64,000 nt of DNA from a virus. Its lineage: Duplodnaviria > Caudoviricetes. Below the pieces are notes generated by a model. The model was not told where the DNA came from. It made no database searches and saw nothing but the letters and a program-made list of their open reading frames with translations. Positions 32,139 through 58,778 of the stretch are shown here, piece after piece (positions within the stretch are counted from its first letter, which is position 1; every line of letters begins with the position of its first letter). A program made the translations under genes and the position numbers. The stretch covers positions 96,001 to 160,000 of the IMG/VR virus record IMGVR_UViG_3300036762_000065, one strand, 5' to 3'.

Positions 32139-32354
32139 TTACATACCGTCTGTGTCTAAGTAGTCGTCTTGGATACCTATATTCTGCTTTCTCGCACTCA
32201 TCTTACGCACTCGCATAAGCTCCAGTCTAGCCTTGTCTTCTTTTTCCAATATCTTCGGCAAAAACAGATTCGCATCTGAGTTATTACTAAACTTATTAGA
32301 CTTCTTTTTGTTTTTACGTTTCTTCGCACATAGAGCTATTTCTATTTCTATCAT
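32139..32354 (-). CDS. Small basic protein with I-x-I-[SA]-[LI] leader (MIEIEIALC)
   Basis: Start at 32354 (SD AGGTG) is preferred over 32447, which overlaps the upstream gene. Confidence 0.6.
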   Translation of the reverse strand: MIEIEIALCAKKRKNKKKSNKFSNNSDANLFLPKILEKEDKARLELMRVRKMSARKQNIGIQDDYLDTDGM

Positions 32355-32361
32355 GATGCAC

Positions 32362-32706
32362 CTATTTAGAGAAGAAAGAAAATCGTTTCTTTTTGTCGGA
32401 TAAATTATTCCCGCAGTGTTTGCAAAATTTGGCATTAAACACAACACTGTTACACTTTGAGCATTTCTGTTTAAGATCCGGGTCTAGTCCGCTATATACA
32501 GCAAGAACATTCAATACCCTCAAACGTTGGCCGTCTGTGATGCGTTTTATATTATTTCCGAGCAAAAAACTGAGTTCATTTGAGTTGGTAAATTCTTGAT
32601 CTTTTACCAGTCTCTTACACTTATTTATAGCTTCCCTGTTTTTCTGTGTACGTGGTGTTTGTGTCAGTGTGTTTAAAAACTCAATTAAATGTTCGCATGT
32701 GGCCAT
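32362..32706 (-). CDS. Protein with C-terminal zinc ribbon
   Basis: CSKC...FCKHCG. Confidence 0.7.
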   Translation of the reverse strand: MATCEHLIEFLNTLTQTPRTQKNREAINKCKRLVKDQEFTNSNELSFLLGNNIKRITDGQRLRVLNVLAVYSGLDPDLKQKCSKCNSVVFNAKFCKHCGNNLSDKKKRFSFFSK

Positions 32707-32716
32707 TTCTTTTTAC

Positions 32717-33439
32717 CTATTTTTTATTTGCTAAGGCAGCTTCTGCCCACACTCTGTCAGGCATTTTAGCAGAGACCATAGCATCTCCCGTCTGCTTAAC
32801 AAATATGTCTAATGCGTCTTCTTCAGACATATCTGAAGTTATTTCGTTTTCTACAGGAGCAGCAGAGGCGAATGCTGCAATTTTAGCTCCGTGTATTAAT
32901 GCAGTATGTTCCGCAAGCCCTAGTCCTATACCCTTTGCTGCACTAGCAAGACCTGCACTTAACCCACCACTAATTGCCATTGGTCCTATCACCATAGCTT
33001 CGTGTATAGCCGCAGTTTTTAGTGCATGTTTTTCGTGACTTGTCATTTTCTTGCCGGTAGCTAGTTTCTTAATTCCTCTACCTGCATCTTGCCATTCTTT
33101 TACTTCATGCTTAATAGCTTTAACGATACCTTTAGAATTATCTTTAATCATTGAGCCAAATGTACGTCGTTCTTTGGACTCCGGTTTATGGCCACCTCTA
33201 CCGAAGAATTCTTTTTGGTCTTCGCTAAACTTATTCCAGTGTTTCTTAATGTGGTGACTCACTTGCACTTTAGCAACCGTGTCTTTGCCTTTTTCGGACT
33301 TTTTAGCTTTGTATGCCACTGCATATTTAGAGGTAGGGTACTTCTTAACATAAGCTTCTTGCCCTGCTTGATCCATTTCGTAGAACCAAGCACCTTCTTT
33401 AGTAACGGTCTTTGATAAGGAAATCTGTATAGGTATCAT
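32717..33439 (-). CDS. Basic protein with MIPIQISLS leader and Gly/Ala hydrophobic segment (candidate internal virion protein)
   Basis: Leader motif; W....Q..Y.KKYP.SKY motif; GGLSAGLASAAKGIGLG segment. Confidence 0.7.
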   Translation of the reverse strand: MIPIQISLSKTVTKEGAWFYEMDQAGQEAYVKKYPTSKYAVAYKAKKSEKGKDTVAKVQVSHHIKKHWNKFSEDQKEFFGRGGHKPESKERRTFGSMIKDNSKGIVKAIKHEVKEWQDAGRGIKKLATGKKMTSHEKHALKTAAIHEAMVIGPMAISGGLSAGLASAAKGIGLGLAEHTALIHGAKIAAFASAAPVENEITSDMSEEDALDIFVKQTGDAMVSAKMPDRVWAEAALANKK

Positions 33440-33448
33440 TTGTAGTTC

Positions 33449-34990
33449 CTATTTATTTCCTGTGAATTGCACATAAGTAAAGCAGCTATATTTTCCATGC
33501 TTTTCTTCTGGACATTCGCCTTTAAAACTTATAGTCAGTGAGTTTTCAAAGAATAGGCCGGGAGCACCTGCTTCTATATCTATTATCGGACTGACAATAT
33601 TTAAAATCTTCTTCTCGCCAAGTGTCATCTTAACATAATTGTCTTCTGTATTAGACTTGTGTTCGTGTGGGAAGTATCCTCCTATAACAGCACGCCATTG
33701 TTCTGTAGCTAATGCTGGTATGGTTATTTCAGTAACGTTACCGTCTATGACTATTTTAGCACTACCTTCTGCCCCTGCTACCAGAGCAGGAAACATAATA
33801 AGAGGTATAAACCCACCGTGCTCATTACACACTCTAAACAGATCAGTGTATGTATCTGCGTTGATACCAACACCTCCGTGTACGCCTCCGTATCTACGTA
33901 GTACTGTCATAAATCCATATTCTTTTAGAGGGTCGTCTGCACTGTAGATAGGAAATTCTAGGCCGTCTGACTTGACTACAACTACGTCATCTATACTCAC
34001 TCTGCTCATTGGCATTTTTGTAGGAAAACGTTTGTAGTTGTTAGGGATTACATACGCAGATTCTTTGTCTAGTCCTACGTCCAGTCCTTTCCCTGTTTTC
34101 CCTGTTATGAAGTTTAAAAATTTCAATTTAGCCCTCAATATAGTATCGTGCCTAGGACTCAAAGGTAGTACATGAGTACCATCCAACACCTCTAAATATG
34201 TAGAATTCTCTATAGTACAAGAGGCGTACTCGGCATGTTCTAAATTAACATCTGTGTCCCTAGTACCGTGTATTATTAAAGCAGGTGAGGTTATGTTTAT
34301 TAAAGGATATCCGTTAGCTTTTAATTCACGTAAATCATTCTCTACGCCTTTTTTGCGTAACTTAGGGTCCATGAGACTATTTGTAATACGTTTAAACAGA
34401 CTTAAACGTACAGGGTCTCGACACACGTTATAACTTAAATCCCGTATTTCCCTACTACTCAAACTACTTGTGCATTTCAGCATCATATAGATTCCGAACC
34501 TAGGAAACAGGCGCACAGACAACTTACTCATTAAAAAGTATATGTCGGATAAGGCAGGCTTGTACGTAAGCTTTCTACTTATGAAGTCATAGGGAACTTC
34601 ATACCGTTTACTAACACCGCTTTCTATTATAAGTCCTATACACCGCTCTGGATAAAGGGCTGCAAAGTGATATGCTATACCTGAGCCTGAACTTATAGCG
34701 TATATGATTGCCTTAGGAATGTCTAATTCGTCCATTAAACATTTCATCATAATAGCTTGCTTTCTAAAAGAGGAATTTTCGTCTGACAAAGGGGTTTGTC
34801 CATAACCAGGTCGCGACCAAGCTACCACACTACAAGCACACTTGTGCATTATATCGTTTAAGTAGGGTTCAATTTGATCATAACCGCCAGGAGTTCCGTG
34901 AATAGCAACTATACGAGGGCCGGAAGCTCCGTATGTTTTGTACTCAACTTCACCCAAGGCTGTATTAATAACACTACTTTTAATGTTCAT
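33449..34990 (-). CDS. Alpha/beta hydrolase fused to an unknown C-terminal domain of about 200 aa
   Basis: HGTPGG oxyanion motif, SRPGYG.T, nucleophile AISSG, HGTRD acid, GTH His. Confidence 0.85.
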   Translation of the reverse strand: MNIKSSVINTALGEVEYKTYGASGPRIVAIHGTPGGYDQIEPYLNDIMHKCACSVVAWSRPGYGQTPLSDENSSFRKQAIMMKCLMDELDIPKAIIYAISSGSGIAYHFAALYPERCIGLIIESGVSKRYEVPYDFISRKLTYKPALSDIYFLMSKLSVRLFPRFGIYMMLKCTSSLSSREIRDLSYNVCRDPVRLSLFKRITNSLMDPKLRKKGVENDLRELKANGYPLINITSPALIIHGTRDTDVNLEHAEYASCTIENSTYLEVLDGTHVLPLSPRHDTILRAKLKFLNFITGKTGKGLDVGLDKESAYVIPNNYKRFPTKMPMSRVSIDDVVVVKSDGLEFPIYSADDPLKEYGFMTVLRRYGGVHGGVGINADTYTDLFRVCNEHGGFIPLIMFPALVAGAEGSAKIVIDGNVTEITIPALATEQWRAVIGGYFPHEHKSNTEDNYVKMTLGEKKILNIVSPIIDIEAGAPGLFFENSLTISFKGECPEEKHGKYSCFTYVQFTGNK

Positions 34991-35042
34991 AAGACTCTAC
35001 CAGTACATGTTCAATGAGGCACTTAATACGTTCCATACGCGC

Positions 35043-35483
35043 CTATCGTGTAACTTTAAGTTTAATTACAGAATCTTCTTTAAAGACAAGAACATCCCCG
35101 TCTAAGTATCCTATAGCTCCTTCTATCTTTCCAACACGTTCTATCATTTCGGCATTAGTGTTTACTACAATAGGTACTTCTATACGTCCTGAGTTTATCG
35201 CGTTGTCAAGTCTACGTTGGTAACTTGCTTTACCTATACCTAGATAGTTCTCAACAAACCAGATGTGAGGGAAGCTGTCTCGAGGCATCAAAACAATAAC
35301 TACAGGAAGCCCGTTATCCCATCGTTGTGTTGATGTGAATACAGTAAATAACTCTTCGGACGAGAGCGTTTTGTTCTTATTAATGCTATTTACAATAGGC
35401 GGAGTGTCGTAAGGATCGGCATAACATATAGCACTTGCAGCAAGTGTAGTTACAAGCATTAACCCAACTATTGTTTTCATCAT
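35043..35483 (-). CDS. Small periplasmic-binding-protein-like protein (phosphate ABC SBP-like family)
   Basis: Signal peptide; LS..EL..VF....RWDNG, H..FV...LG, EMI..V....GAIGY. Confidence 0.7.
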   Translation of the reverse strand: MMKTIVGLMLVTTLAASAICYADPYDTPPIVNSINKNKTLSSEELFTVFTSTQRWDNGLPVVIVLMPRDSFPHIWFVENYLGIGKASYQRRLDNAINSGRIEVPIVVNTNAEMIERVGKIEGAIGYLDGDVLVFKEDSVIKLKVTR

Positions 35484-35492
35484 ACTCCCATG

Positions 35493-36272
35493 CTATCCGT
35501 CTGTTTGTTTCTTAGTATTAAGTAGGAGAGTTCTCAATTTATTTTCAATAAACTGCAATCTCTCATTCATCTCTGCCTTTTCTTGTATTTTTATTTTATC
35601 CAGTTCATTAAACTGTTCTCTTGACTTCTGTTCAAGTTCTTTCAACAGACCGCTTAATTCCCGTACCTTCAACTCTATCTCTTTGTACTTTAAAGCGTCC
35701 GTAGTTTTTAGCTCGCTTATGAGTTCTTCTATAGTTTCAATATTTTCCTTTGCCCTAGCCTCATCTTTAGTTACAACTTCCTTGACGAGGACTTCCATGC
35801 TTTTCACTATGTTTTTAGCTTCCTCTGCTTGAGCAGCATCAGTAGAACGTAAGTCTTCCACTTTAGCCTTAAGATTTTCAAAGCCGTTTTCTAGTGTATT
35901 AAGCTTAACGTACTCTGTCGCTACCACTCCACTAAAAGCTACTGCAAAAGCTACTGCTTTTCCTGTAGTAACTTTAGTGCCTTCTAACAAATCAGGCTGT
36001 TCAGATTCGGCCTTAGGTGCTTCTTGTCTTTGTACAGGAGACGGGTACGGAATACCTTGACTACTGTTATTATACTGCGGAGGTATATTATTAGGATTTT
36101 GACCTCGGCGCTGATCGTAATAAAAGTTTTGCTCGTAATATTCTGAATTGTACTCTCGCGGAGTATGTTCATTTCTTCTTTGTCTGGAAATATCGCGATT
36201 TTCATGAGGACTATCCATAGAATCATACGGATTTCCTATATCAAAAGGATCTCGAGGATTATTATCGGACAT
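35493..36272 (-). CDS. Membrane-anchored coiled-coil protein
   Basis: Disordered N-terminus, one TM (AVAFAVAFSGVVA), long coiled coil; TGTAAAC motif upstream. Confidence 0.7.
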   Translation of the reverse strand: MSDNNPRDPFDIGNPYDSMDSPHENRDISRQRRNEHTPREYNSEYYEQNFYYDQRRGQNPNNIPPQYNNSSQGIPYPSPVQRQEAPKAESEQPDLLEGTKVTTGKAVAFAVAFSGVVATEYVKLNTLENGFENLKAKVEDLRSTDAAQAEEAKNIVKSMEVLVKEVVTKDEARAKENIETIEELISELKTTDALKYKEIELKVRELSGLLKELEQKSREQFNELDKIKIQEKAEMNERLQFIENKLRTLLLNTKKQTDG

Positions 36273-36299
36273 TTTACTTCCTCAATATAGTTTACAATA

Positions 36300-39200
36300 T
36301 TATACTACCTGTATGTTTGATACAGTGCCGCTACTAGGCCAAATATCATATAGTTCAGAACTAATACGCCAGAAAAAGCGAGTAACGTTTTGCGAACTGT
36401 AATAATTTAATACAGCATCCTCTGCATAATATCTGCCTATATTGGAGATTTCCATATAATTAAAACTTTGCAATGGTACGTTACCGCTTAAAATGATTTC
36501 AATGTTTGTGTCTAAAGTATTTCTGTCTCTTTTTACCAGTATGGCCTTTATCAATCTGCCATTAACGGATGCTCCGTTCAACATAGCGCCCATTGCAGGG
36601 TGAATGCCAGAAATTAACGCTGAATACCCTTTTCTATCTACAGTAGCCCCTGATGTATTTAATGCTGTTGTTATGCTAGTGTTTGCACTAAATATTTCTG
36701 TGCTAATACTAGCTTGTACTGTGTTTGTAGGGAAAGCTAATCCTGTTATGTTGTTACCTGCAGCATGTTTAGATGTAGAGTCTCCACCGTTTTTGTATTT
36801 TGATACGTCCCAAGTAAAGTCTGTATGTTGTCCGCTTCCGGCGTTACCTATTGATGCAGTCTGTGAGGAGTATGTACCCCAACCAGGTATACGTATAGCT
36901 CCTATGTCGGAGTTAGTCAGCCCCTGCTGGTGCAATTGTAGCCAAAATTTATCTCCTGTTGCACCGAGCGTCGGACTACCTGATGAGTAGCAACCTATAG
37001 CAGTTATCTCAGGTACGCCTTGCGTACCGGTGTTTATAGCTGCGCCTATTCTTCTGATTGTCGGATAATTAACAAACCCGTTAGCTTCTGAAGTCCCTAA
37101 GTTCACAGGAGCTGAGGCAGGTAAGATAACAAGATCCGTATCTGAATACCATGCCTGGTTATTCATTTCCACACTGATGAAACCGTCGTTGCTGATTAAA
37201 TCATACTGATCAGCAGTTATAGTCCAGCTATATATAGTTTCTCCTTGGACGCTGTACTCCTTGGCACTAGACGAGTACAGTAGAGTTCCTATACGGTGTA
37301 CGTATATAGAATCAAAAAGATCAAAAGACAGTCTCTCGCCTTCGAAAACTATTCTAATAGTATACGTATTAGAATAGTTCCTGTAAATAATAACCTCTAT
37401 GGTGTCTAACCCTATATGTATAGGACTGTCTATAGTGCCTCCTTGATCAGGTGCAGGAATAGTAAAATTCTGCGAATTAAATGTTTCATACCAGTTTCTC
37501 CAGAAACCGTATACATCATGACGAGAAACCCCGTTAGTGTCGTAGTTTGCACTGTCTCCTGTTACAACACTTCTATTAGTAAGAGTCTGTGCTGGTATAG
37601 TGCCGCCAATCCACTTCATTTGAAAAACAACGCTCTGTGTGTAAAGAGCATTAGCAGAATTGAACAACTCCTGGCCTATAGGCCACACCCACGCAGAATC
37701 AGTGCCTAAGAAAGTAGGTTGAAAGTTACCTCCCTGTAGATTATCTGTATAGAATCGACCTACGCCTTTTATTTCTATGTAATCAAAGTGATTTTGAGGC
37801 AACCCAGTCTGCCGCAAAGATAAGTATAACAATCTTGTATTGGAGCCAGTGTCTTGATAAAAGATGATAGTACCTAACTGCACACCGTTTACCAGATCGT
37901 TAGCTTGTATGCTATCTCCAGTAAGCTGGGAATGTCCGACGCTAGGATGAACGTAGCCTGCCCACGTCTGTGTAGCATTAGATGTACGTCCTACTGTAAG
38001 ACGTTTGTTGAATACTGCCGACCTTAAGTCTAAATTAATTACAGTAGGAATAACAGGGAAGTTTAAACCTGATTTGTTGTTTGCAAATTTACTGATATCC
38101 CACTCCCACTGACAATGTGAGTTAGAAGCATTATTAGTGAGAGTCGCGGAATCCGAAGCTAAATCCGCAAAGTTTGGAATACGCACACACCCGAATATAT
38201 TTTTAGGTATATCAACAGCATTCAATTGAATACGAAATTTATCATCTCCTCCTAACGTACTGTTTACAGGACTGTAACAGTCTATTGCCGTTATTTCGTA
38301 TGAAGGTATTTGTGTGTCTGTATTTAAGCAGGCACCTACATGAAAATTGTTGAAGTACCTGGAGAATCCTTTATAGTCTCTGCCTGAAACAGCATAATCT
38401 CTACCGGCTTGTGTTGGCAATAAAACCAAGTCTACGTTGCTTGTCCAGTTTTGATTGTTTATCTCTACACTGATACCACCGTCTGCAATTATCTGGTTAT
38501 ACTGAAATGCTGATATATTCCAGCGCCAGTATGTACGTAAGTTGTCTGTAGTGACAAACGAACTTGTTTCGCCAGAAAGAAGCACACCCAGACGAAATAC
38601 AGTTAACGAATCGAATAAATCTTGGGCTAATCCTGCTCCTTCTACGGCAAAGCTAAAATAATACTCGTCCGCATTTCCTACATTGCCGTGATCTCTAAAA
38701 ACAACAGCTTGTTGTACTATCAAACCGTTTTGTATTGTATCAGTGCTGATACTGCCTCCGTCTGCGGATGCTGGCTCCGTCTGTGTAGGCAGATCGTTGA
38801 ATCCTGACCAATAGCCTGTAATATCATACGTGTTGTTCGAAGTATAGCTTTCGCTGGCAGAAGTTATTAAAATACGCTCGTCCAAGGACTGTATTGGAGG
38901 ATATTCTAGTATAGGACCTGCTTCTTTACCTTCAAACACAAGCTGTACTTTTAAATTATTGCCTGTCTTAATACTACCTACTTGTGTTATATCTAAACTA
39001 AAAACATCATTGACTTCTCCTGTAACATACAGAGGATCAGTAGTGCCAGTATTATAGACGGTTCCTATGTTAGCGCCCGGTGCTATATAAATGTCGGCTA
39101 CATTAACGCCATTTTTCTTCAACAGAGCTAACACAGGACTGCCTGTAGGAGAATCCCCTATTGTTGCATTTGCACCAGTTATTGTGATTGGAGAAGCGGC

Positions 39201-39329
39201 TTTATATCTACATGCGTTATTTCTTACAGCAAAGCCTGTTGACATATCTACCAACACACTATCCTGTACGACACTAAGAAATGATATATCAGCACCTAGG
39301 CCGACTTTAATTACGTTATCGAATTTCAT
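36300..39329 (-). CDS. Large tail-appendage/receptor-binding protein with internal duplication
   Basis: N-terminal LKKNG...QVGS adaptor domain plus two related modules of about 430 aa (DLFDS...RLG/RIG...W.I...ISVE.NNQ.W). Confidence 0.65.
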   Translation of the reverse strand: MKFDNVIKVGLGADISFLSVVQDSVLVDMSTGFAVRNNACRYKAASPITITGANATIGDSPTGSPVLALLKKNGVNVADIYIAPGANIGTVYNTGTTDPLYVTGEVNDVFSLDITQVGSIKTGNNLKVQLVFEGKEAGPILEYPPIQSLDERILITSASESYTSNNTYDITGYWSGFNDLPTQTEPASADGGSISTDTIQNGLIVQQAVVFRDHGNVGNADEYYFSFAVEGAGLAQDLFDSLTVFRLGVLLSGETSSFVTTDNLRTYWRWNISAFQYNQIIADGGISVEINNQNWTSNVDLVLLPTQAGRDYAVSGRDYKGFSRYFNNFHVGACLNTDTQIPSYEITAIDCYSPVNSTLGGDDKFRIQLNAVDIPKNIFGCVRIPNFADLASDSATLTNNASNSHCQWEWDISKFANNKSGLNFPVIPTVINLDLRSAVFNKRLTVGRTSNATQTWAGYVHPSVGHSQLTGDSIQANDLVNGVQLGTIIFYQDTGSNTRLLYLSLRQTGLPQNHFDYIEIKGVGRFYTDNLQGGNFQPTFLGTDSAWVWPIGQELFNSANALYTQSVVFQMKWIGGTIPAQTLTNRSVVTGDSANYDTNGVSRHDVYGFWRNWYETFNSQNFTIPAPDQGGTIDSPIHIGLDTIEVIIYRNYSNTYTIRIVFEGERLSFDLFDSIYVHRIGTLLYSSSAKEYSVQGETIYSWTITADQYDLISNDGFISVEMNNQAWYSDTDLVILPASAPVNLGTSEANGFVNYPTIRRIGAAINTGTQGVPEITAIGCYSSGSPTLGATGDKFWLQLHQQGLTNSDIGAIRIPGWGTYSSQTASIGNAGSGQHTDFTWDVSKYKNGGDSTSKHAAGNNITGLAFPTNTVQASISTEIFSANTSITTALNTSGATVDRKGYSALISGIHPAMGAMLNGASVNGRLIKAILVKRDRNTLDTNIEIILSGNVPLQSFNYMEISNIGRYYAEDAVLNYYSSQNVTRFFWRISSELYDIWPSSGTVSNIQVV

Positions 39330-39337
39330 GATATTAC

Positions 39338-39733
39338 CTACACTACGGAATAATTTATCTGCACAACAAGATCGCGACCTTGGAACGTAGTACCTACTTG
39401 CAACACATCTACAGAAATATTATCTGTATTAGTCAGAGAGGAGCTTGTTAGGCTACCTACAGGTACCGTAATTTCAACATCTCCTGCAGGTAATACAATA
39501 GGACTGTCTATCAAAGCAATGCCGTTCTTTTTAATACTGATCTGTATGTCATTACCTATTGCCGCAGCACCTACAGACACAACTATATCTGTAATAGCAA
39601 TATGAGCGTTCGGATACCAACGACTGAAATTATTAGACACACTCAGGTTGCCTGAAAACACAATAGACTTGGAGCCTATCAAGCCTGTTGTTATGTTGGT
39701 ATTCGGTAAAGCGTTAAGTCCATCCACTAGCAT
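39338..39733 (-). CDS. Stand-alone adaptor-domain virion protein
   Basis: IKKNG...VLQVGT...G.DL.VQINY. Confidence 0.65.
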   Translation of the reverse strand: MLVDGLNALPNTNITTGLIGSKSIVFSGNLSVSNNFSRWYPNAHIAITDIVVSVGAAAIGNDIQISIKKNGIALIDSPIVLPAGDVEITVPVGSLTSSSLTNTDNISVDVLQVGTTFQGRDLVVQINYSVV

Positions 39734-39742
39734 AATATACTC

Positions 39743-41461: not shown

Positions 41462-41488
41462 ATTGTTTTACCGAGTTTGTAGGGAAAC

Positions 41489-41524
41489 AAAAAACGGGTA
41501 TGGAGTCGAAACTCACATACCCGT
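41489..41524 (-). terminator. Rho-independent terminator (UUCG loop)
   Basis: Minus strand ACGGGTATGTGAGT-TTCG-ACTCCATACCCGT followed by TTTTT. Confidence 0.85.
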
Positions 41525-41527
41525 ATT

Positions 41528-42097
41528 CTAGGCTAATGAGCCTGCAAATGTATACGAAACATCAGCTAATGTAGAGTCTGCCGGAGTAGGTGCTACTACA
41601 ATAAGAGATTCTCCGGTAGTAACATACATAGGATTAGACCCTACTTGAGAGAATGTTCCTACAGTATTACCTGCTTCAAATATTATACTTCCTATAGTAG
41701 CTTCAGTACCTTGGCGTGATATTTTCTTTATACTTAAAGTGGTTTGTGCTGTTGCTCCTACTACAGAACGGGCTAAACACCCTTCAAACCCTATCTTTAT
41801 AACAAAGCTTCTAACTGCCAGTGCTCTTGATAGTACAGTACCTGATGACATTGTACCGACAACCTGGCCACCTACATCATAAGGCACTGCACTGTTATCA
41901 GGACTGTTTGATATCCAGTCAACATCGGTAGCGTTGTATGTATATATACCAGGATTCTTTCCGTTATATAGTTCAGTTAGTTCAAAAACATCACCTTGAG
42001 AAGGGCTGCCTGGAAAAGCAACTCCTCGTTTTGTAGCATCCAGCACCGTTTTACTTATGTTACTACCGTCAGCAAGTAAAATACCATCTATCAACAT
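41528..42097 (-). CDS. Virion fibre-associated protein
   Basis: FPGSPSQGD...YTY....W motif plus a divergent adaptor domain. Confidence 0.6.
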   Translation of the reverse strand: MLIDGILLADGSNISKTVLDATKRGVAFPGSPSQGDVFELTELYNGKNPGIYTYNATDVDWISNSPDNSAVPYDVGGQVVGTMSSGTVLSRALAVRSFVIKIGFEGCLARSVVGATAQTTLSIKKISRQGTEATIGSIIFEAGNTVGTFSQVGSNPMYVTTGESLIVVAPTPADSTLADVSYTFAGSLA

Positions 42098-42108
42098 AAC
42101 ATTTCCCC

Positions 42109-42327: not shown

Positions 42328-42339
42328 GATATCTCTCCG

Positions 42340-42939: not shown

Positions 42940-42960
42940 AACAAATCCTCAACGTAGTAG

Positions 42961-44702: not shown

Positions 44703-44812
44703 TAGTTAATACTCCTGATTTACATGTAATTAAGTGTACTTTTGCACACAGTATTAAATTAGTAACTGTAAAAAAAATATATACAACAACTAATGTTAAA
44801 TAAGGTAAAGAT

Positions 44813-47243: not shown

Positions 47244-47253
47244 TTTAATTCTC

Positions 47254-50403: not shown

Positions 50404-50413
50404 CTAATTATCC

Positions 50414-50677
50414 TTATTTTGTACGTAACCCGTGTGCGGCTGGATTCTTTCTAACTACACTTCTACGTTTCGACACCTTTTCTTTTAGTGCATCACGTTT
50501 CTCTTCAATTTTAGTTTCAATGGCCTCAATACGAGCTTTAGCTTTATTTATTTTATCTTTATACCCGGTTCCTTTTTCTTTTTCCAAAGTTGCAATTAAA
50601 TCTTTTTGCTTTTTTATCTTTTGTTTGTCCGTAAGTTTTGCATTTTTTGTTGTGCTCAAGCTAATAAGAATTTTCAC
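50414..50677 (-). CDS. Small Lys-rich coiled-coil protein with MKILISLS leader
   Basis: GTG start with SD AGGAG; leader motif. Confidence 0.7.
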   Translation of the reverse strand: MKILISLSTTKNAKLTDKQKIKKQKDLIATLEKEKGTGYKDKINKAKARIEAIETKIEEKRDALKEKVSKRRSVVRKNPAAHGLRTK

Positions 50678-50919
50678 TATAAATCTCCTAGTATGTTTAG
50701 TATTTCCAATTCTTTTCTTTGTATTATTGCGTCAGGTGCTATTTCAGACAGTCCGCTCAACTCTATCACAAGCTTTGCTACCGTAGGGCCTATTTGTTCA
50801 GCATTGTGTTCAGCAAATACCGCAGCATCTTTATACGCTTTGTTGCCTATAAGATGCTTTAACTCTAACGAGAGAGAATGCTTTACGTCTGTGCTTAAAC
50901 TTATCTGTATAGGAATCAT
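50677..50919 (-). CDS. Small protein with MIPIQISLS leader
   Basis: SD AGGAG; leader identical to that of 32717-33439. Confidence 0.7.
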   Translation of the reverse strand: MIPIQISLSTDVKHSLSLELKHLIGNKAYKDAAVFAEHNAEQIGPTVAKLVIELSGLSEIAPDAIIQRKELEILNILGDL

Positions 50920-50928
50920 TAATGTCTC

Positions 50929-51432
50929 CTAAGGTTTTATCCAAAGTGCTCCAGGCATCGCTGATCCTGACGGGTCCTCTGTCTGTATAAATATCTGCAC
51001 TATACCATCTTGTCCTGCGTCTCCTTGAGGTCCTGTTGGACCTTTAGGTCCTGTAAACCCTCTAGGACCAGCAGGACCTTGAGGACCCTGAGCACCCTGA
51101 GCACCCGCAGGACCGGCACATCCTGTAAATCCGGTAAACCCGTCAGCCCCGAGTAGTCCGTCAGTGCCGTCAGCCCCGCTCAAACCTTGGGCTCCTGCAA
51201 CGCCGACGCCTATATTGCCTTGTGTCATAAAGCCAGACACTACAAGTTCAGTACCGTTGGCAAGTAAGAGAGTAAGCTTACCGTTAGCATCGTCAAAATT
51301 GCCTCCTACCACACCTAAGTTGTTAGGATTCTCTTCAGGATTTAAGACAACTTTCTCACCGTCAAAGCGCACATCAGACCCAGGAATGCCTTTTGCATCG
51401 AGCATAGTTAGTGGTGTTTTAGTTAAAGCCAT
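50929..51432 (-). CDS. Collagen-like protein
   Basis: About 21 Gly-X-Y triplets; MALTKTPL N-terminus shared with 46254-47063; C-terminal DP....G.LW motif. Confidence 0.85.
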   Translation of the reverse strand: MALTKTPLTMLDAKGIPGSDVRFDGEKVVLNPEENPNNLGVVGGNFDDANGKLTLLLANGTELVVSGFMTQGNIGVGVAGAQGLSGADGTDGLLGADGFTGFTGCAGPAGAQGAQGPQGPAGPRGFTGPKGPTGPQGDAGQDGIVQIFIQTEDPSGSAMPGALWIKP

Positions 51433-51435
51433 TTC

Positions 51436-51627
51436 TTAACTCCTGAAGTTCACTTTTTTAGGATGTATACGACAAGCTAGTTTTAACAGAATTAATGAGG
51501 TTGTTTGTTCTGTTAACTTATAGCCCAGGCATTTAAAACATTTACCTTCCTGTTCAATACAAAACGATTGTTCGGAAGGAGATGTATATTCATGTTTACA
51601 GTCTGGACATATCATTTTTAAAATCAT
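51436..51627 (-). CDS. Small zinc-finger protein
   Basis: CPDC...CFKC. Confidence 0.5.
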   Translation of the reverse strand: MILKMICPDCKHEYTSPSEQSFCIEQEGKCFKCLGYKLTEQTTSLILLKLACRIHPKKVNFRS

Positions 51628-51647
51628 GATTGCTGCCCTTGTAGAAC

Positions 51648-52352
51648 TTACTTAGCGTGTTTTAAATATGACTTTATTGCTTTAACGACAAAAACTCTAT
51701 CTTTGTCTTGTTCTGCACTAGATAGTTTGCTAAATGGTTTTTTCTGGTGCTCTTCTGCCCACGATCCGTTACGTTCGAGCCATTTTTTATGTACGTGATC
51801 GGCAGCTTTATCTAAAGCACCTGCATCGAGCTTACCTCCTTTAGCAGCTAATTGTATTCCTTCCACAACAGCTTCGGCATTCTTCTTGTTCTCTGCTTTC
51901 CAATCTTCAGGTAAGTCTTTATAATCTGTGTTCAGTATATCAACCTCGTCTTTACCGTTTTTCTTTATCCACGCTTCATCTTTAGTTTTCTTTATCCTGG
52001 TTTTCTCATTAGGCTTATCTCTTCTATATTCTTTTTGCCAATCTGAGTGTCCGTTAGATGCAACATCGTCAACCATTGCTTTACTGTGTTTTTTTATGTC
52101 TACCTTATCGCCCATTTTCTGAATCAACGCAGAACCTTGTTTTTGTACTAATGTACCTTTAACAGGAGCTTTCTTGGTAGCAGTTTTACTTTTAGTTACT
52201 GTAGTGCCTTTGACAGGCACGAGCTTGCCGCCTACCGATTTGTGGGTTATTATACCTTCTTTGTTTGCGTATCTGCCGAAAGAAGCATGGTGCAATCCCA
52301 TTTTCTTTGCTTCAGCACCAGCATCGCTAGATAGACTTATATGTATAAGCAT
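51648..52352 (-). CDS. RyR-repeat protein with MLIHISLS leader
   Basis: Two RyR-like units, H..W...Y.DLPE.WK.EN and H.VH..W...PF..LS..EQDKDR; N-terminal GL...FGRY...G..THKS..GKL domain. Confidence 0.65.
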   Translation of the reverse strand: MLIHISLSSDAGAEAKKMGLHHASFGRYANKEGIITHKSVGGKLVPVKGTTVTKSKTATKKAPVKGTLVQKQGSALIQKMGDKVDIKKHSKAMVDDVASNGHSDWQKEYRRDKPNEKTRIKKTKDEAWIKKNGKDEVDILNTDYKDLPEDWKAENKKNAEAVVEGIQLAAKGGKLDAGALDKAADHVHKKWLERNGSWAEEHQKKPFSKLSSAEQDKDRVFVVKAIKSYLKHAK

Positions 52353-52434
52353 AAAAAAGTTCCTTATTTAGTATTGTGTTTTTGATTACTATATTATGAT
52401 CATTACGGTACATACGTATGACTACTATGGTACA

Positions 52435-53151
52435 CTAAGGCCACGGGCTGCCGATCGGAGGATCGACTAGCCCTGTATCAGGATCGACTATTTCTCCGCC
52501 TCCACCGGGTGCAGGTTCAGGCTCCGGTGCAGCAGGAGGAGTTGCGTCAGGATTTACCCAAAGCGTTCCAGGCGCTACTGCACCCGGGTCTGTGGAACTC
52601 ACTATAATAGACACACTTCCTACAGGCCCTGGAGCACCAGGTTCTCCCGGAGGCCCTGCTTCGCCTCTAGGTCCTGTTGGACCCAATGCGCCTTGAGGTC
52701 CTGTAGGTCCTTTTATTCCCGGAGGACCTTTAGGCCCCGGACAACCCTTAGGTCCAATAGTACCCTGCTGACCTGCGCGCCCATCTCTGCCGTCTTCTCC
52801 TTTAGGGCCGGTAGGGCCAGGAGGTCCTTCGCAACCTGCATCCCCTTTCTCCCCGTCTTTACCGTCTTGCCCTATCTTACCATCTTTACCGCTAAGGCCT
52901 TGAGGCCCGGTCGGCCCTGTTGGTATATTAGACGCTGTAGGGAATCCTTTTATCGACACAGACTCTCCGTTCTGCATCGTTATTGTAAGTATACCTTGAA
53001 TGTCATCAAAGAAACCACTTACAACTTCTGATATCTCACTCTCAGTCGGAGCGACTAGCTTAAGGCGCTCGTTGTCTACAATTATTTCTGTAGCTCCGTC
53101 AGCACCACTAGCTTTTACTTGATCAATTAGAGGTCTAGTTAAACCAACCAT
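52435..53151 (-). CDS. Collagen-like protein
   Basis: About 33 Gly-X-Y triplets; DPG...PGTLWV C-terminal motif; start at 53151. Confidence 0.85.
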
Positions 53152-53152
53152 T

Positions 53153-53404
53153 TTATTTCTCCATACAATCTTCAACAACTGTACGTAATTTTTCTTTGTA
53201 GCTCTTACCGGAAGAGCCTACAACGCGAATGCTACCATTCTCACTGATAGTGGCTATTTTAGTATTACCGGAAAAAACGATTGTTTTATTTGAAAATCCG
53301 CTACTATTATCTACAACGCCTTTTAAACCTATTGATTTTAATTTACGTTGCAGTGAAGATAGATCAACTTTTTTACTTTTTGCTATAGATATTTGTATTT
53401 TCAT
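53153..53404 (-). CDS. Small basic protein with MKIQISIA leader
   Basis: SD AGGA; leader motif. Confidence 0.7.
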
Positions 53405-53413
53405 AAGTTATTC

Positions 53414-54166
53414 CTAGATAGGTATGCCCCAAACAACTGATAATAAATCCGGTTCGTTAGCTGATACAACAACATAAGTGTTCAACGCAACACCGTCAGT
53501 GCCTGCAGCCCCTGCTTCTGCACTGCTACACTTATCTCCTCTGAAGCCTCTAGAGCCTTCGAAGCCGTGTACTCCTGCAGGTCCTTGAGGTCCTTGAGCA
53601 CCTTGCGTTCCTTCACACCCTTCAGGTCCTTCATCTCCAGGGTCTCCGTCTGCACCATCGTTACCGGCAGCTCCGGGCGCGCCTTGAGGCCCGACAGGAC
53701 CGGGACAACCGGTAACACCTAGTTTACCGTTGCGTCCGTTATTACCGTCGTCTGCATCTTTGCCTCTATTGCCTTTAGGACCTGTAGGGCCGACCCCGAA
53801 GTCTTTTTGCGTATAAAACCCGGAAACAGTAACAAGTTTTTTATTGGCTTTCACTACGAATAAAGTACCGGTCTCTTTGTCGAAGTTTATTTCTTTGATG
53901 CGGCCTTCATTAGTAACAGTTCTGTTCCTATACGTTATTTCAGACGTACCATCTTTCCTACCGACTTGTAGAGTATCATACCCGAAGCTATCAAACATGG
54001 CATAATCAAGATTTTCTATTTCTTGACCTTCATTTTCAAGCCTAACGTTTGCAGAATTTTGCTCAGGCGTGTTTGTAAGTATGGTTTGACCTATAGGTAC
54101 TTTAGTCAAATCACCTTCCGAAGCACGTTTATACAACTCTGATTTAGAAACACCTTTAATCGTCAT
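53414..54166 (-). CDS. Collagen-like protein
   Basis: About 28 Gly-X-Y triplets preceded by the shared FD...G.L...SGF.T..FGVG domain. Confidence 0.85.
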   Translation of the reverse strand: MTIKGVSKSELYKRASEGDLTKVPIGQTILTNTPEQNSANVRLENEGQEIENLDYAMFDSFGYDTLQVGRKDGTSEITYRNRTVTNEGRIKEINFDKETGTLFVVKANKKLVTVSGFYTQKDFGVGPTGPKGNRGKDADDGNNGRNGKLGVTGCPGPVGPQGAPGAAGNDGADGDPGDEGPEGCEGTQGAQGPQGPAGVHGFEGSRGFRGDKCSSAEAGAAGTDGVALNTYVVVSANEPDLLSVVWGIPI

Positions 54167-54722
54167 TTAACGTCCTCACAGCCGTATAGAAATAACTGTA
54201 CACTTCTTCAATATCAAGTATAGAACTACAATCTTCCAACTTGTTCAACACATCCCGCTCAAGTCTAAGTAAAAAACTCGTTGCCTTTGCCATACGTAAT
54301 TTTAATTTCTGTATAGACAACTGATGCAAACAAACAGGGTCACCTTGAACATCGGGTATATAGTAAGAGCACTCATCGGCATTTGCATACAGGCACACCA
54401 AAGATATTGTGTCTGTATTGAGCTTAAAACTTCTGTTATTGAACAAAAGCCCAGTAGCCTTAACATAAGCTAGTTTTCGTAGTATAGAAAGCTTATAGGT
54501 TCTTCTTATAGTCTCTACATTGTCTATAGTTACTATATCACCATTAACGTATCTATACTTCTTACCATCCCCTAGATTAGCATTAAGTACATTGTAAGCA
54601 TCTTCAGTTAATACCTTGCAGCCTTCAGGTAACTGCATATGCTCTAAATTAGAAACCTCCTGCAGTTCAATAGTTTTTATAAAATCATTGTCGTCTATTG
54701 TTGCAAAATAAACTATGTACAT
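54156..54722 (-). CDS. Tail fibre assembly chaperone-like protein
   Basis: MYIVYF.TID...I; YRY.NG.IV motif; lies downstream of a fibre/baseplate gene. Confidence 0.5.
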   Translation of the reverse strand: MYIVYFATIDDNDFIKTIELQEVSNLEHMQLPEGCKVLTEDAYNVLNANLGDGKKYRYVNGDIVTIDNVETIRRTYKLSILRKLAYVKATGLLFNNRSFKLNTDTISLVCLYANADECSYYIPDVQGDPVCLHQLSIQKLKLRMAKATSFLLRLERDVLNKLEDCSSILDIEEVYSYFYTAVRTLNDD

Positions 54723-54729
54723 GACTCAC

Positions 54730-57700
54730 CTATGCAATGTTTATTTTAGGAGTGCCTATTACGTTAAAGTTTACCATAAGCAAACTTTCATACTTTGATG
54801 TTTCGGCTTCTTTAATACGCATCTTGGCAATTATGTCAATATACCCTGCAGGTATGTTATTCTTTATTACTTCAAACACTTGCGTAAGACTTGCATTAGC
54901 GTATGCTTTTTGATCATTACCGTTACTAGGTAACGCAGAGAATCCTGCTGTGCCTGTGCCTTTTATCTGACGGCCGTACTCAGGTTCTCGCATACTTGTT
55001 GTTCTAAAACCTATAACATATTCCATACGTTCGAGTCCTGCAGGACTGACAAACCCTGGGCCTAGTTCAGCACTGAAATCCGCTATAACAGTAAGCAATA
55101 CGTCATCTGTTAAATTAAGTCTCCAACTGTAGATTATTTCATTAGAGTTGGACTCTTTTTGCAGTGTACTCATTTTAAAGTTTGTACTTGACGTAAACGC
55201 CTCTGCAATAGTGCTTTCAAACGTATAAACGGGATGTATGCCTGTTATCTTAATCCCTCTTCCGCTCTTGAACTCTACAGCAGGTATAGGCAAAGAGATT
55301 TGCTTTGCGTCATGGCGTATGAGCTTGAGGCTCTTTGAAGTAAGTATAGCATCGACAACAACACCGGTAAGGTTTGTACGTGAACTTCCTTGTGCCTTGA
55401 CGTTGTTGAATATAAGTACTTCAACTTCTCTGCCTGCAGGTATTGGACTACTTAATACTAGATTGTTATCGACAACTGTATATAGATCACGATGTATATG
55501 GCTACCTGACACCGACAAGAAAGTCATATCTTTTGTTTGTGGGTGTATAGGCAGTTCTACAAACAACGTTTGCCCTACAGTAATAAGCTGTTGTGTAATC
55601 ATCTCTGTACTGTAGCCGTCTTCTTGCCTGCGGACCATTAACGTGATTTCAATACTATTTCCAGGAGAAGGCGGTTGAGTGAATACTATTTGTTGTGTAG
55701 CCGCATCGTAAGTATAACTCACAGTTCCTTGCAGTACGCTTTGTATGTGTACGAAACAATACTCAGCACCGTCTATAGGGAAGGTCAATGTAAATCTTGT
55801 TTCTTGTCCGTCACCTACAAATTTATTGGTAACAAAATCTATGTAAGTACCGTTACCTGGGTCCTTAGTATACATACGTAAATCAATGCTTACGTTGCTA
55901 GGTATTGGCTCAGCGAATTCTATTTCACTCCCTTCAATATCAAACGCTGTCTTATGTTGGAATATACCACCAAGAGCAGCAACCATATAGTTATTGTCTT
56001 TAAGTACAATGCCGCCTAAGTTATAACGCCGTGTGACTCCATCACCTACTAAAGATAAGTTTGTAACTCTCAATCTTCCGGGAGCTTGATACAATGTACT
56101 TACTATTTCACTGCCTCCCCTAGGAGGTGCCCATACAGGAAAATCTCCAGCACCTCGAATAAGTGTCCAGTCATCTGGAATATTAATTCTACTAGGTAGA
56201 GAATCGTCACAACAATTACCTCCGGCGCCTGAACCTGAGGTCCCAGGAATTACAGTTGTTTGAGGCATGTTTACTGTTATGCCAGGATTAGTGAAAGCAA
56301 CGTTGAATACTTTATTACCTATTCCGGCATTTGTAGTTCTGTATAGTAACCACGTACTAGGATTATCTCCTATGTTACGAGTTAACGTTATCGGACTAGA
56401 CGCTCCTGTCCAGTCATTTGTACTGTTATCAGAAGTGTCTGTAAATACAGCAGCACCTAATGCGCTAGGGTATACAAAATAACCATACAGAGTTCCACCT
56501 GTTCCAGAACCTCCTGTAGTTACGCTAGGGGTCGCACCTGCAAATTCAAACGTGTAGTCTATTATCTTTTGACCCACATCCGGGAAATCCATTCTATAGA
56601 CGCGCCAGTTTGTAACAACACCGCCTACAGTACGAGTGAACAGTACAGGACCTGTTTCAAACGAGAAGCTACCATCATCGGGCCATTTAGCTCCGTCCCA
56701 TCCTCCACTGAATGAAGTAGCTGTATCGGTAAATACAACATCTCCAAGCTCTTCTGGTGCTATGAAGTAACCATAGTTACCTCCAGAAGAACCTGTATCA
56801 ATAGTAAACTGACCGTTATTTGTGTTAGGTAGTTCTGTACCACCAACTGCTATTAAATTTCCTATCTCCGCTTCTGTGTCTGCGCCGATTTGACCAACTG
56901 CAAATATAGGACGTAATTGTATAGTAGTACCTCCACCACCCGTATCGTTATCTACTACGTTTATAGTAAAGTTCTGATTGCTTGTGTTAGACAGTTCGGT
57001 AGCAGAAGTTAAAAGGTTTTCCAACTCTTGCGTAGTGTCTATACCTGCAACACTTGTAGCGAACATAGGAAGTGCAGGTATCTGGTTTACTACAGTCTGA
57101 TCTTCTGTACTGCCCGAGCATCCGCATCCACAACAACCGCCCTCAATACGTTTCCATATAGATATAGTGCTCGAAGAATCTAGTATAGAAAAAGGATACG
57201 CATCGGCTTCCATGAAGTTATCGTTCAACTGACTGTAAGAGAATCGTCTTGTTTCTCCTGCACCAGGGCCTGACACAATGTTAACAATGACAATCTCACC
57301 GTTTGCAAACCTATTATCGGCACTTATAGTTGCTCGCTTGAAACTGTTTATAGAAGGTCCTGAATCAGGCACACCTATGTATGCACGTTCATGTGAACTA
57401 AATGCCCATTGGAAATTGCCTTGACCGAATCGAAGTGCAAACGCAGGAGAAGTCGTACCGTCTATGTTTGTTAGTGCGTCTAATACACTAATAACGTTGT
57501 GGGTACTAAGTACAGGTGATGGTAGTTGTCGTATAAATGGAGTTACTGGTATACTACTGTAGCTGCCGATAGTAACGTCTATTGTTGATAAATCACACTC
57601 ATTGGTAGTTATTATGGCTACAATTTCAGTACCGCTTTGGTAATGTAGAGTGTATGCTTCTGTGAAAACACACCGCGCAAACATGACATTGTTTTCAAAG

Positions 57701-57984
57701 AATATCGCGCCTTCCTTTATATCAATTCCGCCGGCAGGTGGAACATAATCAGGTATAAAGAAAGTAAAACGAGTGCTGAATTCATCCAACACTTCTACAA
57801 AATAAATATCACCTTCAAAAACAGTATTACCTTGAATATCGGTATGGTCATCGCTGTGAGGAAAATCACTGTCACCGACTTTAAACTTAACCGGGCGAAC
57901 AAGCAAGCCTCCGGCACTTGCATTGTTGACAGCTTGTCTGCCTAGTGTAGTTAGTTTTAATCTATTGTCCATTTTATTATCCAT
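54730..57984 (-). CDS. Baseplate-anchored proximal tail fibre/baseplate protein
   Basis: LTTLG..A fibre-attachment N-terminus; repeated GDG...F.L....V...G..Q...Y units; nested YGYF modules. Confidence 0.7.
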   Translation of the reverse strand: MDNKMDNRLKLTTLGRQAVNNASAGGLLVRPVKFKVGDSDFPHSDDHTDIQGNTVFEGDIYFVEVLDEFSTRFTFFIPDYVPPAGGIDIKEGAIFFENNVMFARCVFTEAYTLHYQSGTEIVAIITTNECDLSTIDVTIGSYSSIPVTPFIRQLPSPVLSTHNVISVLDALTNIDGTTSPAFALRFGQGNFQWAFSSHERAYIGVPDSGPSINSFKRATISADNRFANGEIVIVNIVSGPGAGETRRFSYSQLNDNFMEADAYPFSILDSSSTISIWKRIEGGCCGCGCSGSTEDQTVVNQIPALPMFATSVAGIDTTQELENLLTSATELSNTSNQNFTINVVDNDTGGGGTTIQLRPIFAVGQIGADTEAEIGNLIAVGGTELPNTNNGQFTIDTGSSGGNYGYFIAPEELGDVVFTDTATSFSGGWDGAKWPDDGSFSFETGPVLFTRTVGGVVTNWRVYRMDFPDVGQKIIDYTFEFAGATPSVTTGGSGTGGTLYGYFVYPSALGAAVFTDTSDNSTNDWTGASSPITLTRNIGDNPSTWLLYRTTNAGIGNKVFNVAFTNPGITVNMPQTTVIPGTSGSGAGGNCCDDSLPSRINIPDDWTLIRGAGDFPVWAPPRGGSEIVSTLYQAPGRLRVTNLSLVGDGVTRRYNLGGIVLKDNNYMVAALGGIFQHKTAFDIEGSEIEFAEPIPSNVSIDLRMYTKDPGNGTYIDFVTNKFVGDGQETRFTLTFPIDGAEYCFVHIQSVLQGTVSYTYDAATQQIVFTQPPSPGNSIEITLMVRRQEDGYSTEMITQQLITVGQTLFVELPIHPQTKDMTFLSVSGSHIHRDLYTVVDNNLVLSSPIPAGREVEVLIFNNVKAQGSSRTNLTGVVVDAILTSKSLKLIRHDAKQISLPIPAVEFKSGRGIKITGIHPVYTFESTIAEAFTSSTNFKMSTLQKESNSNEIIYSWRLNLTDDVLLTVIADFSAELGPGFVSPAGLERMEYVIGFRTTSMREPEYGRQIKGTGTAGFSALPSNGNDQKAYANASLTQVFEVIKNNIPAGYIDIIAKMRIKEAETSKYESLLMVNFNVIGTPKINIA

Positions 57985-58007
57985 TTATCGTGTGGGATAT
58001 TGTACTG

Positions 58008-58217
58008 TTAATTAGACATAGGGCTGGATACGCGACATTTAGTGCAGTACCACACTGTTTCTACATTTGCAGCAAGACCTGTCCCCATCTGCATACTACA
58101 TTTAGGGCAAGTCCCTTCTTTAGAGTTATCCATAGCTCCGCTTGTGGACTCTGTTCTGCCAGAAGCCTCAGCCAGAGGGTCAAATAACTCACGTCCGCTT
58201 TTTGTTAGTTTGCTCAT
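58008..58217 (-). CDS. Small zinc-ribbon protein
   Basis: CPKC...YCTKC; SD AGGAG. Confidence 0.7.
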   Translation of the reverse strand: MSKLTKSGRELFDPLAEASGRTESTSGAMDNSKEGTCPKCSMQMGTGLAANVETVWYCTKCRVSSPMSN

Positions 58218-58244
58218 AGTGTATCTCCTTTAAATTAAATTACT

Positions 58245-58778
58245 TTAATCTTTGATAATATTTGAAGGCAATTTGCAATACATCTTTATAGAAATAGGTT
58301 TTTTCGAAAGTTCTAAATTCACGCTTTCTATAAGGCGTTTTGTAGCAACACTTAAAGTTCCTTCTACCGTGTCTAGTGTTATGTGCGGTGTAAAAGAATC
58401 GTAGGAGTGCTTGGCTCCAGCATCTATAATACGCTTGTGCATATCTTGTATGTTACCGTTTTCAAGACCTGCAACCACATACGTTCGCTTATCGTGACCA
58501 ATCCAGTGTTTTATACTAACGATATCACAGACAACAACTTCCATTGTACGGTATAGTTCTTCGGCACGTACAACATCAACAACTTCTTTAGGGCTATATA
58601 TTAATGTGCAGTGTAGCTTTGATGTGTTGACCTTTATACCAAGACTGTCGCACAATTTCACTATGTTGTTAATACTCGCATCATCTGGTGCAGAATGCAT
58701 ATACAGCCCGCTTTCTGCATTATACTTTTCGTGATACAGCTCTGGACCTTTAGCAATAGCAATTTGTATAGGTATCAT
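58245..58778 (-). CDS. acb1: Acb1-like (T4 gp57B family) 2H phosphoesterase, anti-CBASS, with MIPIQIAIA leader
   Basis: GLY, LHCTLIYS and GAKHSYDSFTPHITL match the two HxT motifs and spacing of T4 57B (IHSTICYS; GATHDFDDYTPHITL). Confidence 0.8.
   Translation of the reverse strand: MIPIQIAIAKGPELYHEKYNAESGLYMHSAPDDASINNIVKLCDSLGIKVNTSKLHCTLIYSPKEVVDVVRAEELYRTMEVVVCDIVSIKHWIGHDKRTYVVAGLENGNIQDMHKRIIDAGAKHSYDSFTPHITLDTVEGTLSVATKRLIESVNLELSKKPISIKMYCKLPSNIIKD

Follow-up and report, generated by a model that had tools for sequence, protein, structure and literature searches.

A shared N-terminal leader as a candidate head-loading tag in a PaBG/Lu11-clade jumbo phage

Why should seven otherwise unrelated late proteins of one phage begin with nearly the same eight or nine residues? 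The question is raised by a 64,000-nucleotide stretch of viral DNA (IMG/VR record IMGVR_UViG_3300036762_000065; henceforth the window), in which seven minus-strand open reading frames (ORFs) start with variants of a short Ile-rich peptide, such as MIPIQISLS (Table 1; carriers are named by the position of their start codon). A first-pass annotation had read this leader as a distinct targeting code that loads cargo into the phage head. Our computational follow-up partly bears this out: judged from sequence, the leader is probably a removable tag for head loading, comparable in function to the capsid targeting sequence (CTS) of phage T4 but with a different sequence and with a cut site at Ala/Ser instead of Glu. 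In favour of this reading are a site shared with the scaffold and the capsid protein, a protease of gp21 fold, a late-type gene context and a PaBG virion protein that bears a variant of the leader.

The window comprises bases 96001-160000 of one 241,706-base contig, the whole phage genome being about 242 kb, and the phage is an uncultured jumbo myovirus of the PaBG/Lu11 clade. By its baseplate wedge and capsid proteins it is closest to the Pseudomonas jumbo phages PaBG, Lu11 and HRDY3 (52% and 66-67% identity to the nearest relative, respectively), followed by NCTB, Yersinia phage fHe-Yen9-02 and the Dickeya/Erwinia JA11-Y3 group. The public runs that contain its sequence are wastewater and activated-sludge metagenomes.

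The leader peptide and its carriers

All seven ORFs begin at the reported minus-strand starts with the reported N-termini, each preceded by a Shine-Dalgarno-like AGG(A/T) at a distance of 6-10 nt; the start codon of 50677 is GTG. With the first 10 residues cut off, no pair of the seven matches by BLASTP at E<0.1, in line with the claim that the bodies are unrelated beyond the leader. The first-pass consensus of the leaders was M-x(1,2)-I-x-I-[SA]-[LI]-[SAC]. In the whole genome, a strict pattern derived from the window leaders occurs at the N-termini of 11 of 289 called genes against a shuffle mean of 0.03 (13 matches with a codon-model gene caller, where 0.05 would arise by chance). Four matches lie outside the window and are thus held out from the derivation, compared with 0.014 in shuffles. 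At internal protein positions the pattern is found twice versus 1.1 expected, so that the motif is specific to N-termini. In total, about 16 genes genome-wide carry the short form.

Codon usage argues that the constraint acts on the peptide, as had been proposed. The conserved Ser is encoded by both codon families (TCC, TCT, AGT and AGC all occur), and at identical residues of the 16 genome-wide leaders codon identity is 41%, which is not above the 37+/-3% of random back-translation (P=0.17). The idea that the leader is no Sec signal likewise holds on inspection. Sec and lipoprotein signals were defined by a basic n-region, a hydrophobic core of at least 7-8 residues and a c-region; the leader measures 8-9 residues, alternates Ile with polar residues, is directly followed by charged residues and lacks an n-/h-/c-region layout. 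Its anatomy suggests two parts instead, an I-x-I strand and a small-hydrophobic-small end, since in longer forms (genome 82687 and 85010, PaBG gp83 and the homologue P0003) an I-x-I-x-L strand stands apart from a later small-x-small site and since some orthologues possess the strand only.

The location of the carriers had been described as the late minus-strand block with its interleaved fibre genes. This is correct for the seven in the window, but the full set is larger and not restricted to that block, the association with fibre genes being a window-edge effect. Four carriers belong to the plus-strand head operon (genome positions 86319, 91448, 93042 and 94781), one of them between the protease and scaffold genes and three after the capsid gene, and further ones start at genome positions 33306, 178335, 181317, 183925 and 189132. 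Other carriers precede a KMPT-N/SprT protease, a KMPT-N/SAP protein or a PcfJ protein with leucine-rich repeats, or flank a type IB topoisomerase, which itself has a T-S-L-S↓A site at residue 16 (the arrow marks the putative scissile bond here and below). None of the tail, baseplate and fibre proteins has the leader, and no adhesin or fibre domain was found behind it. It is also absent, even in a relaxed pattern, from all 39 plus-strand accessory genes at 12.4-29.7 kb (the first-pass count was roughly 45). Carrier bodies are richer in Lys/Arg than other proteins (P=2e-5).

Two promoter-like motifs stand ahead of different gene classes. TGTAAATA occurs upstream of replication and accessory genes and is the same as an annotated Lu11 promoter (middle/late according to the Lu11 annotators); TAATTTA, for which the examined portion of the Lu11 record holds no annotation, is enriched upstream of sheath, scaffold and baseplate genes. 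The nearest motif is TAATTTA for 13 of 16 carriers (P=0.001), which are located in head and tail operons, and their sequence context suggests that they belong to a late promoter class. Examples of the two motifs can be seen at window 12390-12430 and 44755-44765.

The leader recurs among relatives. Applied unchanged, the strict pattern retrieves 7 fHe-Yen9-02 genes where chance would give 0.04. When the pattern is relaxed, which also brings in some signal peptides, it yields 18 genes in Lu11, 13 in fHe-Yen9-02, 12 in HRDY3, 9 in JA11, 8 in PaBG and 6 in NCTB versus about 1.3-1.9 by chance, exceeding every shuffle in all six; the 2 matches in RSL1, with 1.4 expected, do not stand out from the shuffles. 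Dialects of the leader are present in all six cultured relatives tested: Lu11 has a cluster of about 13 genes starting with MKIQLAVA forms, most of its carriers lying at 154-170 kb, JA11 and fHe-Yen9-02 use S-L-S forms, and throughout the clade the leader closes with Ser, Ala, Cys or Gly. The peptide persists at 39-56% GC, with differing codons and dialects, and across Pseudomonas, Dickeya and Yersinia hosts. Carriers across the clade include topoisomerase IB, SprT protease, NUDIX and ART-PolyVal proteins (97 bits for the latter in JA11). Individual families gain or lose the leader: the Acb1 homologue has it here and, as a variant, in PaBG, where the gene is the second one behind that of the head protease, whereas the fHe-Yen9-02 homologue is leaderless; the 183925 family, for which an Atlas search returned unnamed clusters only, has it here, in Lu11 and in HRDY3 but not in JA11; and the NUDIX proteins of PaBG are leaderless.

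The shared putative cut site, the head protease and links to the virion

The small-x-small site was sought in the scaffold and in the capsid propeptide, where the first-pass annotation had suggested looking for it, and at the sequence level it is present in both. The 797-aa acidic scaffold-like protein contains 17 [SA][ILV][SA] sites compared with 6.9 in shuffles. In six clade genomes the scaffold comes first or second among all proteins of the phage for such sites, with shuffle P between <0.001 and 0.04; the RSL1 scaffold is not top-ranked. In Lu11, the scaffold includes Q-L-A-V-A↓A, identical to the end of the Lu11 leader. The capsid protein presents S-V-S↓S at residues 69-72. In the corresponding region PaBG has A-V-A↓A, and Lu11 and HRDY3 both have A-T-A↓S. 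Alignment with the solved phage G capsid protein sets in at residue 72. A cut here would by calculation remove 20.6% of PaBG gp80, so that the mature protein would start at residue 79, and a loss of about 20% has been published for the PaBG capsid protein (PMC7412058). We also considered E-L-L-A↓S at capsid residue 81, which is less likely because it falls inside the region aligning with the solved phage G protein; the site at 69-72 is preferred on account of its counterparts in PaBG, Lu11 and HRDY3.

The gene ahead of the scaffold (genome 85562-86311) encodes a head maturation protease (PHROG 18299, E 1e-98). In its predicted model (mean predicted local distance difference test, pLDDT, 89.5) it has the fold of T4 gp21, the best match (Z 9.9, root-mean-square deviation 2.7, 138 aligned residues), followed by herpesvirus proteases (varicella-zoster virus, Z 6.0; cytomegalovirus, Z 5.1). 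His114, Ser171 and Glu225 are invariant in 101 protease homologues, and no relatives turned up when viral contigs were scanned with the protease. From the sites described above we infer that it would cut after Ala or Ser. The S-I-S-F-S-L-G at its own N-terminus was rejected as a leader, being the conserved S-F-x-L/I-G element of the protease family.

Indirect links to the virion come from relatives. PaBG gp83, a variant-leader protein, is among the 14 Coomassie-visible proteins of purified virions, as is the 221-kDa large helicase (PMC7412058); the latter displays S-L-S↓A at residue 11, with similar N-termini in JA11, fHe-Yen9-02 and NCTB. The Lu11 and JA11 records have no virion tags. Two of the window's carriers also have counterparts behind other types of leader. 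Over the 37 residues after the 52352 leader, identity is 59% to a module of cyanophage cytidyltransferases, where it follows a T4-type F-L-x-E↓A leader; these enzymes are often detected in cyanophage virion proteomes, with a caveat about contamination (PMC10665884). Family members of the 33439 body (at least 475 representatives) bear leaders that differ by lineage, namely the present one, an RSL1-type R-L-x-A leader or T4-type leaders. A body that swaps its N-terminal peptide with the head system of the phage is what a head-addressing tag predicts.

Several observations weigh against the tag reading. The scaffold is Ser/Ala-rich and the site pattern was partly chosen after inspecting it. The capsid site reads S-E-S in JA11 and fHe-Yen9-02 and V-T-S in NCTB, so that this site is loose and P2 not strict, and the P1 position of the leader is itself deduced from sequence. 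The Ser/Ala dialect of the leader follows the scaffold sites no better than it follows proteome composition (rho 0.54, P=0.21), and we have dropped this covariation as support, given that it is not significant and that proteome composition explains it equally well. Some orthologues keep the strand part only. The large helicase of the present genome has no N-terminal site, and the published virion list contains one clear leader protein, of divergent dialect, on a gel that cannot resolve a loss of 1 kDa.

The proposed route, its alternatives and known systems

We envisage the following route. Carriers would be made late, together with the head and tail genes, in keeping with the observed gene context and the presumed promoter class. 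The I-x-I(-x-L) strand would then bind the assembling prohead core, probably by strand addition to the scaffold or the capsid propeptide, and the gp21-fold prohead protease would cut after the second small residue of [SA]-[LIVT]-[SA]. The same site, whose sharing is seen in the sequences, would serve scaffold fragmentation and removal of the approximately 70-residue capsid propeptide. Freed cargo would stay in the mature head. There, packing with the DNA is probable for the small K/R-rich proteins; the enzymes, at any rate (here Acb1, and in the clade topoisomerase IB, SprT protease, NUDIX and ART), would most likely enter the cell with the genome. Recruitment of new cargo would mean that an existing body gains a leader. 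We consider it likely that binding to the prohead core, cleavage and retention in the head apply jointly, and regard it as roughly evenly poised whether the enzymes, at least, are carried into the next cell.

The alternative closest to this route accepts the same head-loading tag but lets the cargo act in assembly or remain in the head, as core filler, in DNA condensation or in nucleotide clean-up in the dying cell. We think of it as possible, though clearly not the leading option, and what probability it has is part of that assigned to the tag reading, the steps up to and including cleavage being common to both. Most carriers here are indeed small, K/R-rich and familyless, and a topoisomerase or DNA-binding protein could work during packaging. 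Yet an early role in the next cell best suits the Acb1, ART-PolyVal, NUDIX and SprT enzymes, and the internal proteins of T4, as well as Alt, are injected. Their loading depends on the CTS (PMC5694885), and polyvalent proteins are described as injected, too (PMC7824862).

Other explanations dispense with loading into the head. That the leader is an uncleaved docking strand by which variable proteins sit on the virion outside (capsid surface, tail hairs or fibres) would suit the strand-addition potential of I-x-I-x-L, the position of seven carriers among fibre genes and the strand-only orthologues. We hold it to be unlikely in view of the cytoplasmic enzymes among the carriers, the match of the leader end to the scaffold and capsid propeptide sites, the several carriers in the head operon and the lack of any adhesin or fibre domain with a leader. 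Still less probable is an intracellular signal for degradation or sorting, which would be recognized by a protease or chaperone of host or phage and be unrelated to the virion: several leaders do resemble the ClpX-type N-terminal motif (Met-basic-hydrophobic) in that Met-Lys precedes hydrophobic residues, and timed removal could suit toxic enzymes, but the late and head-operon location, the scaffold and capsid sites, the virion-borne PaBG gp83 and the lineage exchange with T4-type and RSL1-type leaders would all be left unexplained, and the leader is kept across three host genera. A mere by-product of DNA, through copying of a cassette of ribosome-binding site (RBS) plus start or through A/T-rich start bias, is largely refuted and in our view very improbable. 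Two pairs do share DNA, so that copying now and then is possible: the start of 53404 has 21 bases in common with that of genome-183925 (uncorrected P=0.015 for the best of 120 pairs), and the RBS spacers ahead of 33439 and 58778 are alike. It does not account for the whole set: leader codon identity lies at the random level with both Ser codon families in use, the peptide outlasts large shifts in GC content, codons and dialect, and N-terminal composition nulls are exceeded more than 100-fold.

How does the cleavable tag compare with known systems? In T4 the CTS stands on IPI, IPII, IPIII and Alt and is removed by gp21 (Mullaney and Black, as cited in PMC5694885). The likeness lies in a short N-terminal peptide common to unrelated proteins, in small basic cargo alongside enzymes, in a gp21-fold protease whose substrates would also include the scaffold, to be fragmented, and the capsid propeptide, and in one cargo module shared with T4-like cyanophages, where it stands behind a T4-type leader. 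Unlike the CTS, which it does not resemble in sequence, the present leader has an uncharged Ile-rich strand and a small-hydrophobic-small end in place of a Glu end, T4-type F-L-x-E leaders being found only on homologues from other lineages; the capsid protein does not belong to the gp23 type and is closest, among solved structures, to phage G gp27; and there are about 16 carriers here, known from sequence alone. We thus view the leader as CTS-like in its presumed working but not as a CTS member by sequence. Head and ejection proteins of SPN3US and phiKZ have propeptides with A-x-E and S/A/G-x-E sites (slashes denote alternative residues; PMC5694885). These are also jumbo-phage N-terminal propeptides that end in a head-protease site with a small P3 residue, and identical N-termini on diverged proteins, for which a targeting role was proposed, are a further parallel; but they come from an unrelated phage group, mostly span 20 to >100 residues and are cut after Glu, as opposed to 8-9 residues and a putative cut after Ala, Ser or Cys here. 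Herpesvirus assemblin maturation sites are cut at Ala↓Ser. Assemblin belongs to the same protease clan and the bond at the presumed cut is small-small in both cases, whereas its sites release scaffold only, with no cargo tag, P2/P3 preferences differ and the Z values are middling. In RSL1, about nine genes, mostly around the head genes (58-78 kb), start with a longer tag of I-x-A-A-V-x-R-L-x-A type, recognized by eye and, in contrast to the present leader, probably helical with an R-L-x-A end; L-K-A↓E stands in the RSL1 capsid protein where the other phages have the clade capsid site, and a simple R-L-x-A pattern is not above chance (6 vs 4.3). Our literature search found no publication on the RSL1 tag and no paper on the present leader, its coverage excluding the Lu11 announcement and the Y3 and RSL1 primary papers.

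The 58778 product, which had been called Acb1-like, is probably an Acb1, i.e. a predicted anti-defence enzyme: it scores 64.9 bits against Pfam PF23474 (cut-off 27), has both catalytic H-x-T motifs (H56-x-T58 and H132-x-T134) and matches solved Acb1 structures at E 2e-7. It is similar to Acb1 of the T4 gp57B family (PF23474) in motifs and profile and differs by its leader. A single literature search on this point returned no report of a virion-packaged Acb1. The expectation that the leader predicts anti-defence proteins did not hold in that form, as it appears to mark head cargo instead: among the carriers in the clade are a type IB topoisomerase and numerous small K/R-rich proteins, which may only condense DNA or fill the core. 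We put forward only tentatively the far-reaching version, in which the two-part code (Ile strand plus Ala/Ser site, read by a non-Glu gp21-fold protease) injects a fast-changing kit that includes a working Acb1 against CBASS (cyclic-oligonucleotide-based antiphage signalling system), and in which the tag flags early counter-defence candidates and suffices for packaging foreign proteins.

If the tag reading is true, a nine-residue pattern would list the hidden head cargo of a cultured jumbo-phage clade (Lu11, PaBG, HRDY3, JA11, fHe-Yen9-02), whose annotated genomes call nearly all leader proteins hypothetical. It would also predict the cut site of a head protease family without a measured specificity, add to the T4 CTS another short tag for packaging, and suggest that Acb1 could be delivered before any phage gene is expressed. 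Since the concept is known from T4, the novelty would lie in the code and in a cargo list open to testing, not in the kind of system.

Carriers of the window and further observations

Table 1. Leader-bearing genes and associated features (window positions unless stated otherwise).
Feature	Position	Strand	Remarks
Leader MIPIQISLS-K	33413..33439	-	9 codons of the 240-aa ORF; residues 1-15 pLDDT <50 in AlphaFold model
240-aa putative cargo	32717..33439	-	Short W..Q..Y..P.SK module, long helices, Gly/Ala-rich hydrophobic hairpin
71-aa basic protein	32139..32354	-	Leader MIEIEIALC-A, 32328-32354
Candidate late-promoter motif TAATTTA	32401..32407	-	53 nt upstream of 32354 start; deduced from enrichment
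87-aa very basic, coiled-coil-like protein	50414..50677	-	Leader MKILISLS-T, 50654-50677; GTG start; K+R 34%
80-aa protein, no known family	50677..50919	-	Leader MIPIQISLS-T, 50893-50919
234-aa mosaic protein	51648..52352	-	Leader MLIHISLS-S, 52329-52352
83-aa basic protein	53153..53404	-	Leader MKIQISIA-K, 53381-53404
177-aa predicted Acb1-family 2H phosphoesterase	58245..58778	-	Leader MIPIQIAIA-K, 58752-58778; domain ~58335-58709
3' end of further leader-bearing gene (PcfJ domain and leucine-rich repeats)	1..340	+	Genome 94781-96340
KMPT-N paralogue	L007:15496-17133		
KMPT-N paralogue	L008:3307-4662		
KMPT-N paralogue	L006:978-2393		
KMPT-N paralogue	genome 201245-201793		

The 33439 protein, in which the first-pass annotation saw a possibly membrane-active product, is predicted to be helical and has a conserved Gly/Ala-rich hydrophobic hairpin; its best 19-residue hydropathy is modest (1.38). 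Fold and Atlas searches with it (model pLDDT 61) gave nothing clear, and tblastn with its body matched no cultured phage. Directly upstream in the late block lies a 513-aa alpha/beta hydrolase (window 33449-34990, minus strand), and this gene order is the same in a close relative.

The 52352 mosaic consists of the leader, the 37-residue module (52218-52328), a Lys-rich linker and a body that had been called a RyR-repeat protein. RyR-like is the more fitting term: the PF02026 score of 14.7 bits (E=0.037) falls below the cut-off of 27.4, while a homologue matched at E 8e-24 does carry PF02026. Other homologues of the body, one of them named from a Candidatus Yonathbacteria metagenome-assembled genome, are leaderless. 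Four small window carriers have no known family and three of these are strongly basic. 32354 is the weakest of the seven, because the orthologue found in a close relative has the I-x-I strand without the small-x-small end. Contigs of a sister strain from activated sludge have 90 other bases in place of the 53404 gene and its upstream region (joint 53153 to 53469; runs X4 and X5 of one study, contig depth 4-5), which makes 53404 an accessory gene. The leader-bearing gene that reaches into the window from the left starts 1.2 kb ahead of it, at the end of the head operon.

Further proteins may take part in head assembly. In four paralogues a KMPT-N domain directly follows a short leader or cut site; one of them lies between the portal and terminase genes, where the PaBG and Lu11 orthologue is leaderless, and the domain may serve as a further module for addressing or ejection, one that is folded. 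A conserved 293-aa protein (genome 36561-37442; L008:6562-7443) has 2-4 small-x-small sites in every clade member and is, by sequence, likely a further core or scaffold-like substrate. A conserved, leaderless 69-aa zinc-ribbon protein (window 58008-58217, minus strand; PHROG 13972, labelled DNA ligase) has S-T-S↓G ahead of its zinc finger, where the Lu11 orthologue has A-T-A↓S twice, and may be another protease-processed head protein. Lu11 contains a second, shortened capsid-protein-like gene (77479-78340), and in HRDY3 the scaffold is split over two genes (226749-228724).

Finally, assembled contigs align twice, at window 58906-59030 and 56439-56488, a sign that the tail genes of 1243 aa and 1084 aa share a short, diverged repeat, and the sister strain is densely divergent at window 56620-56950.

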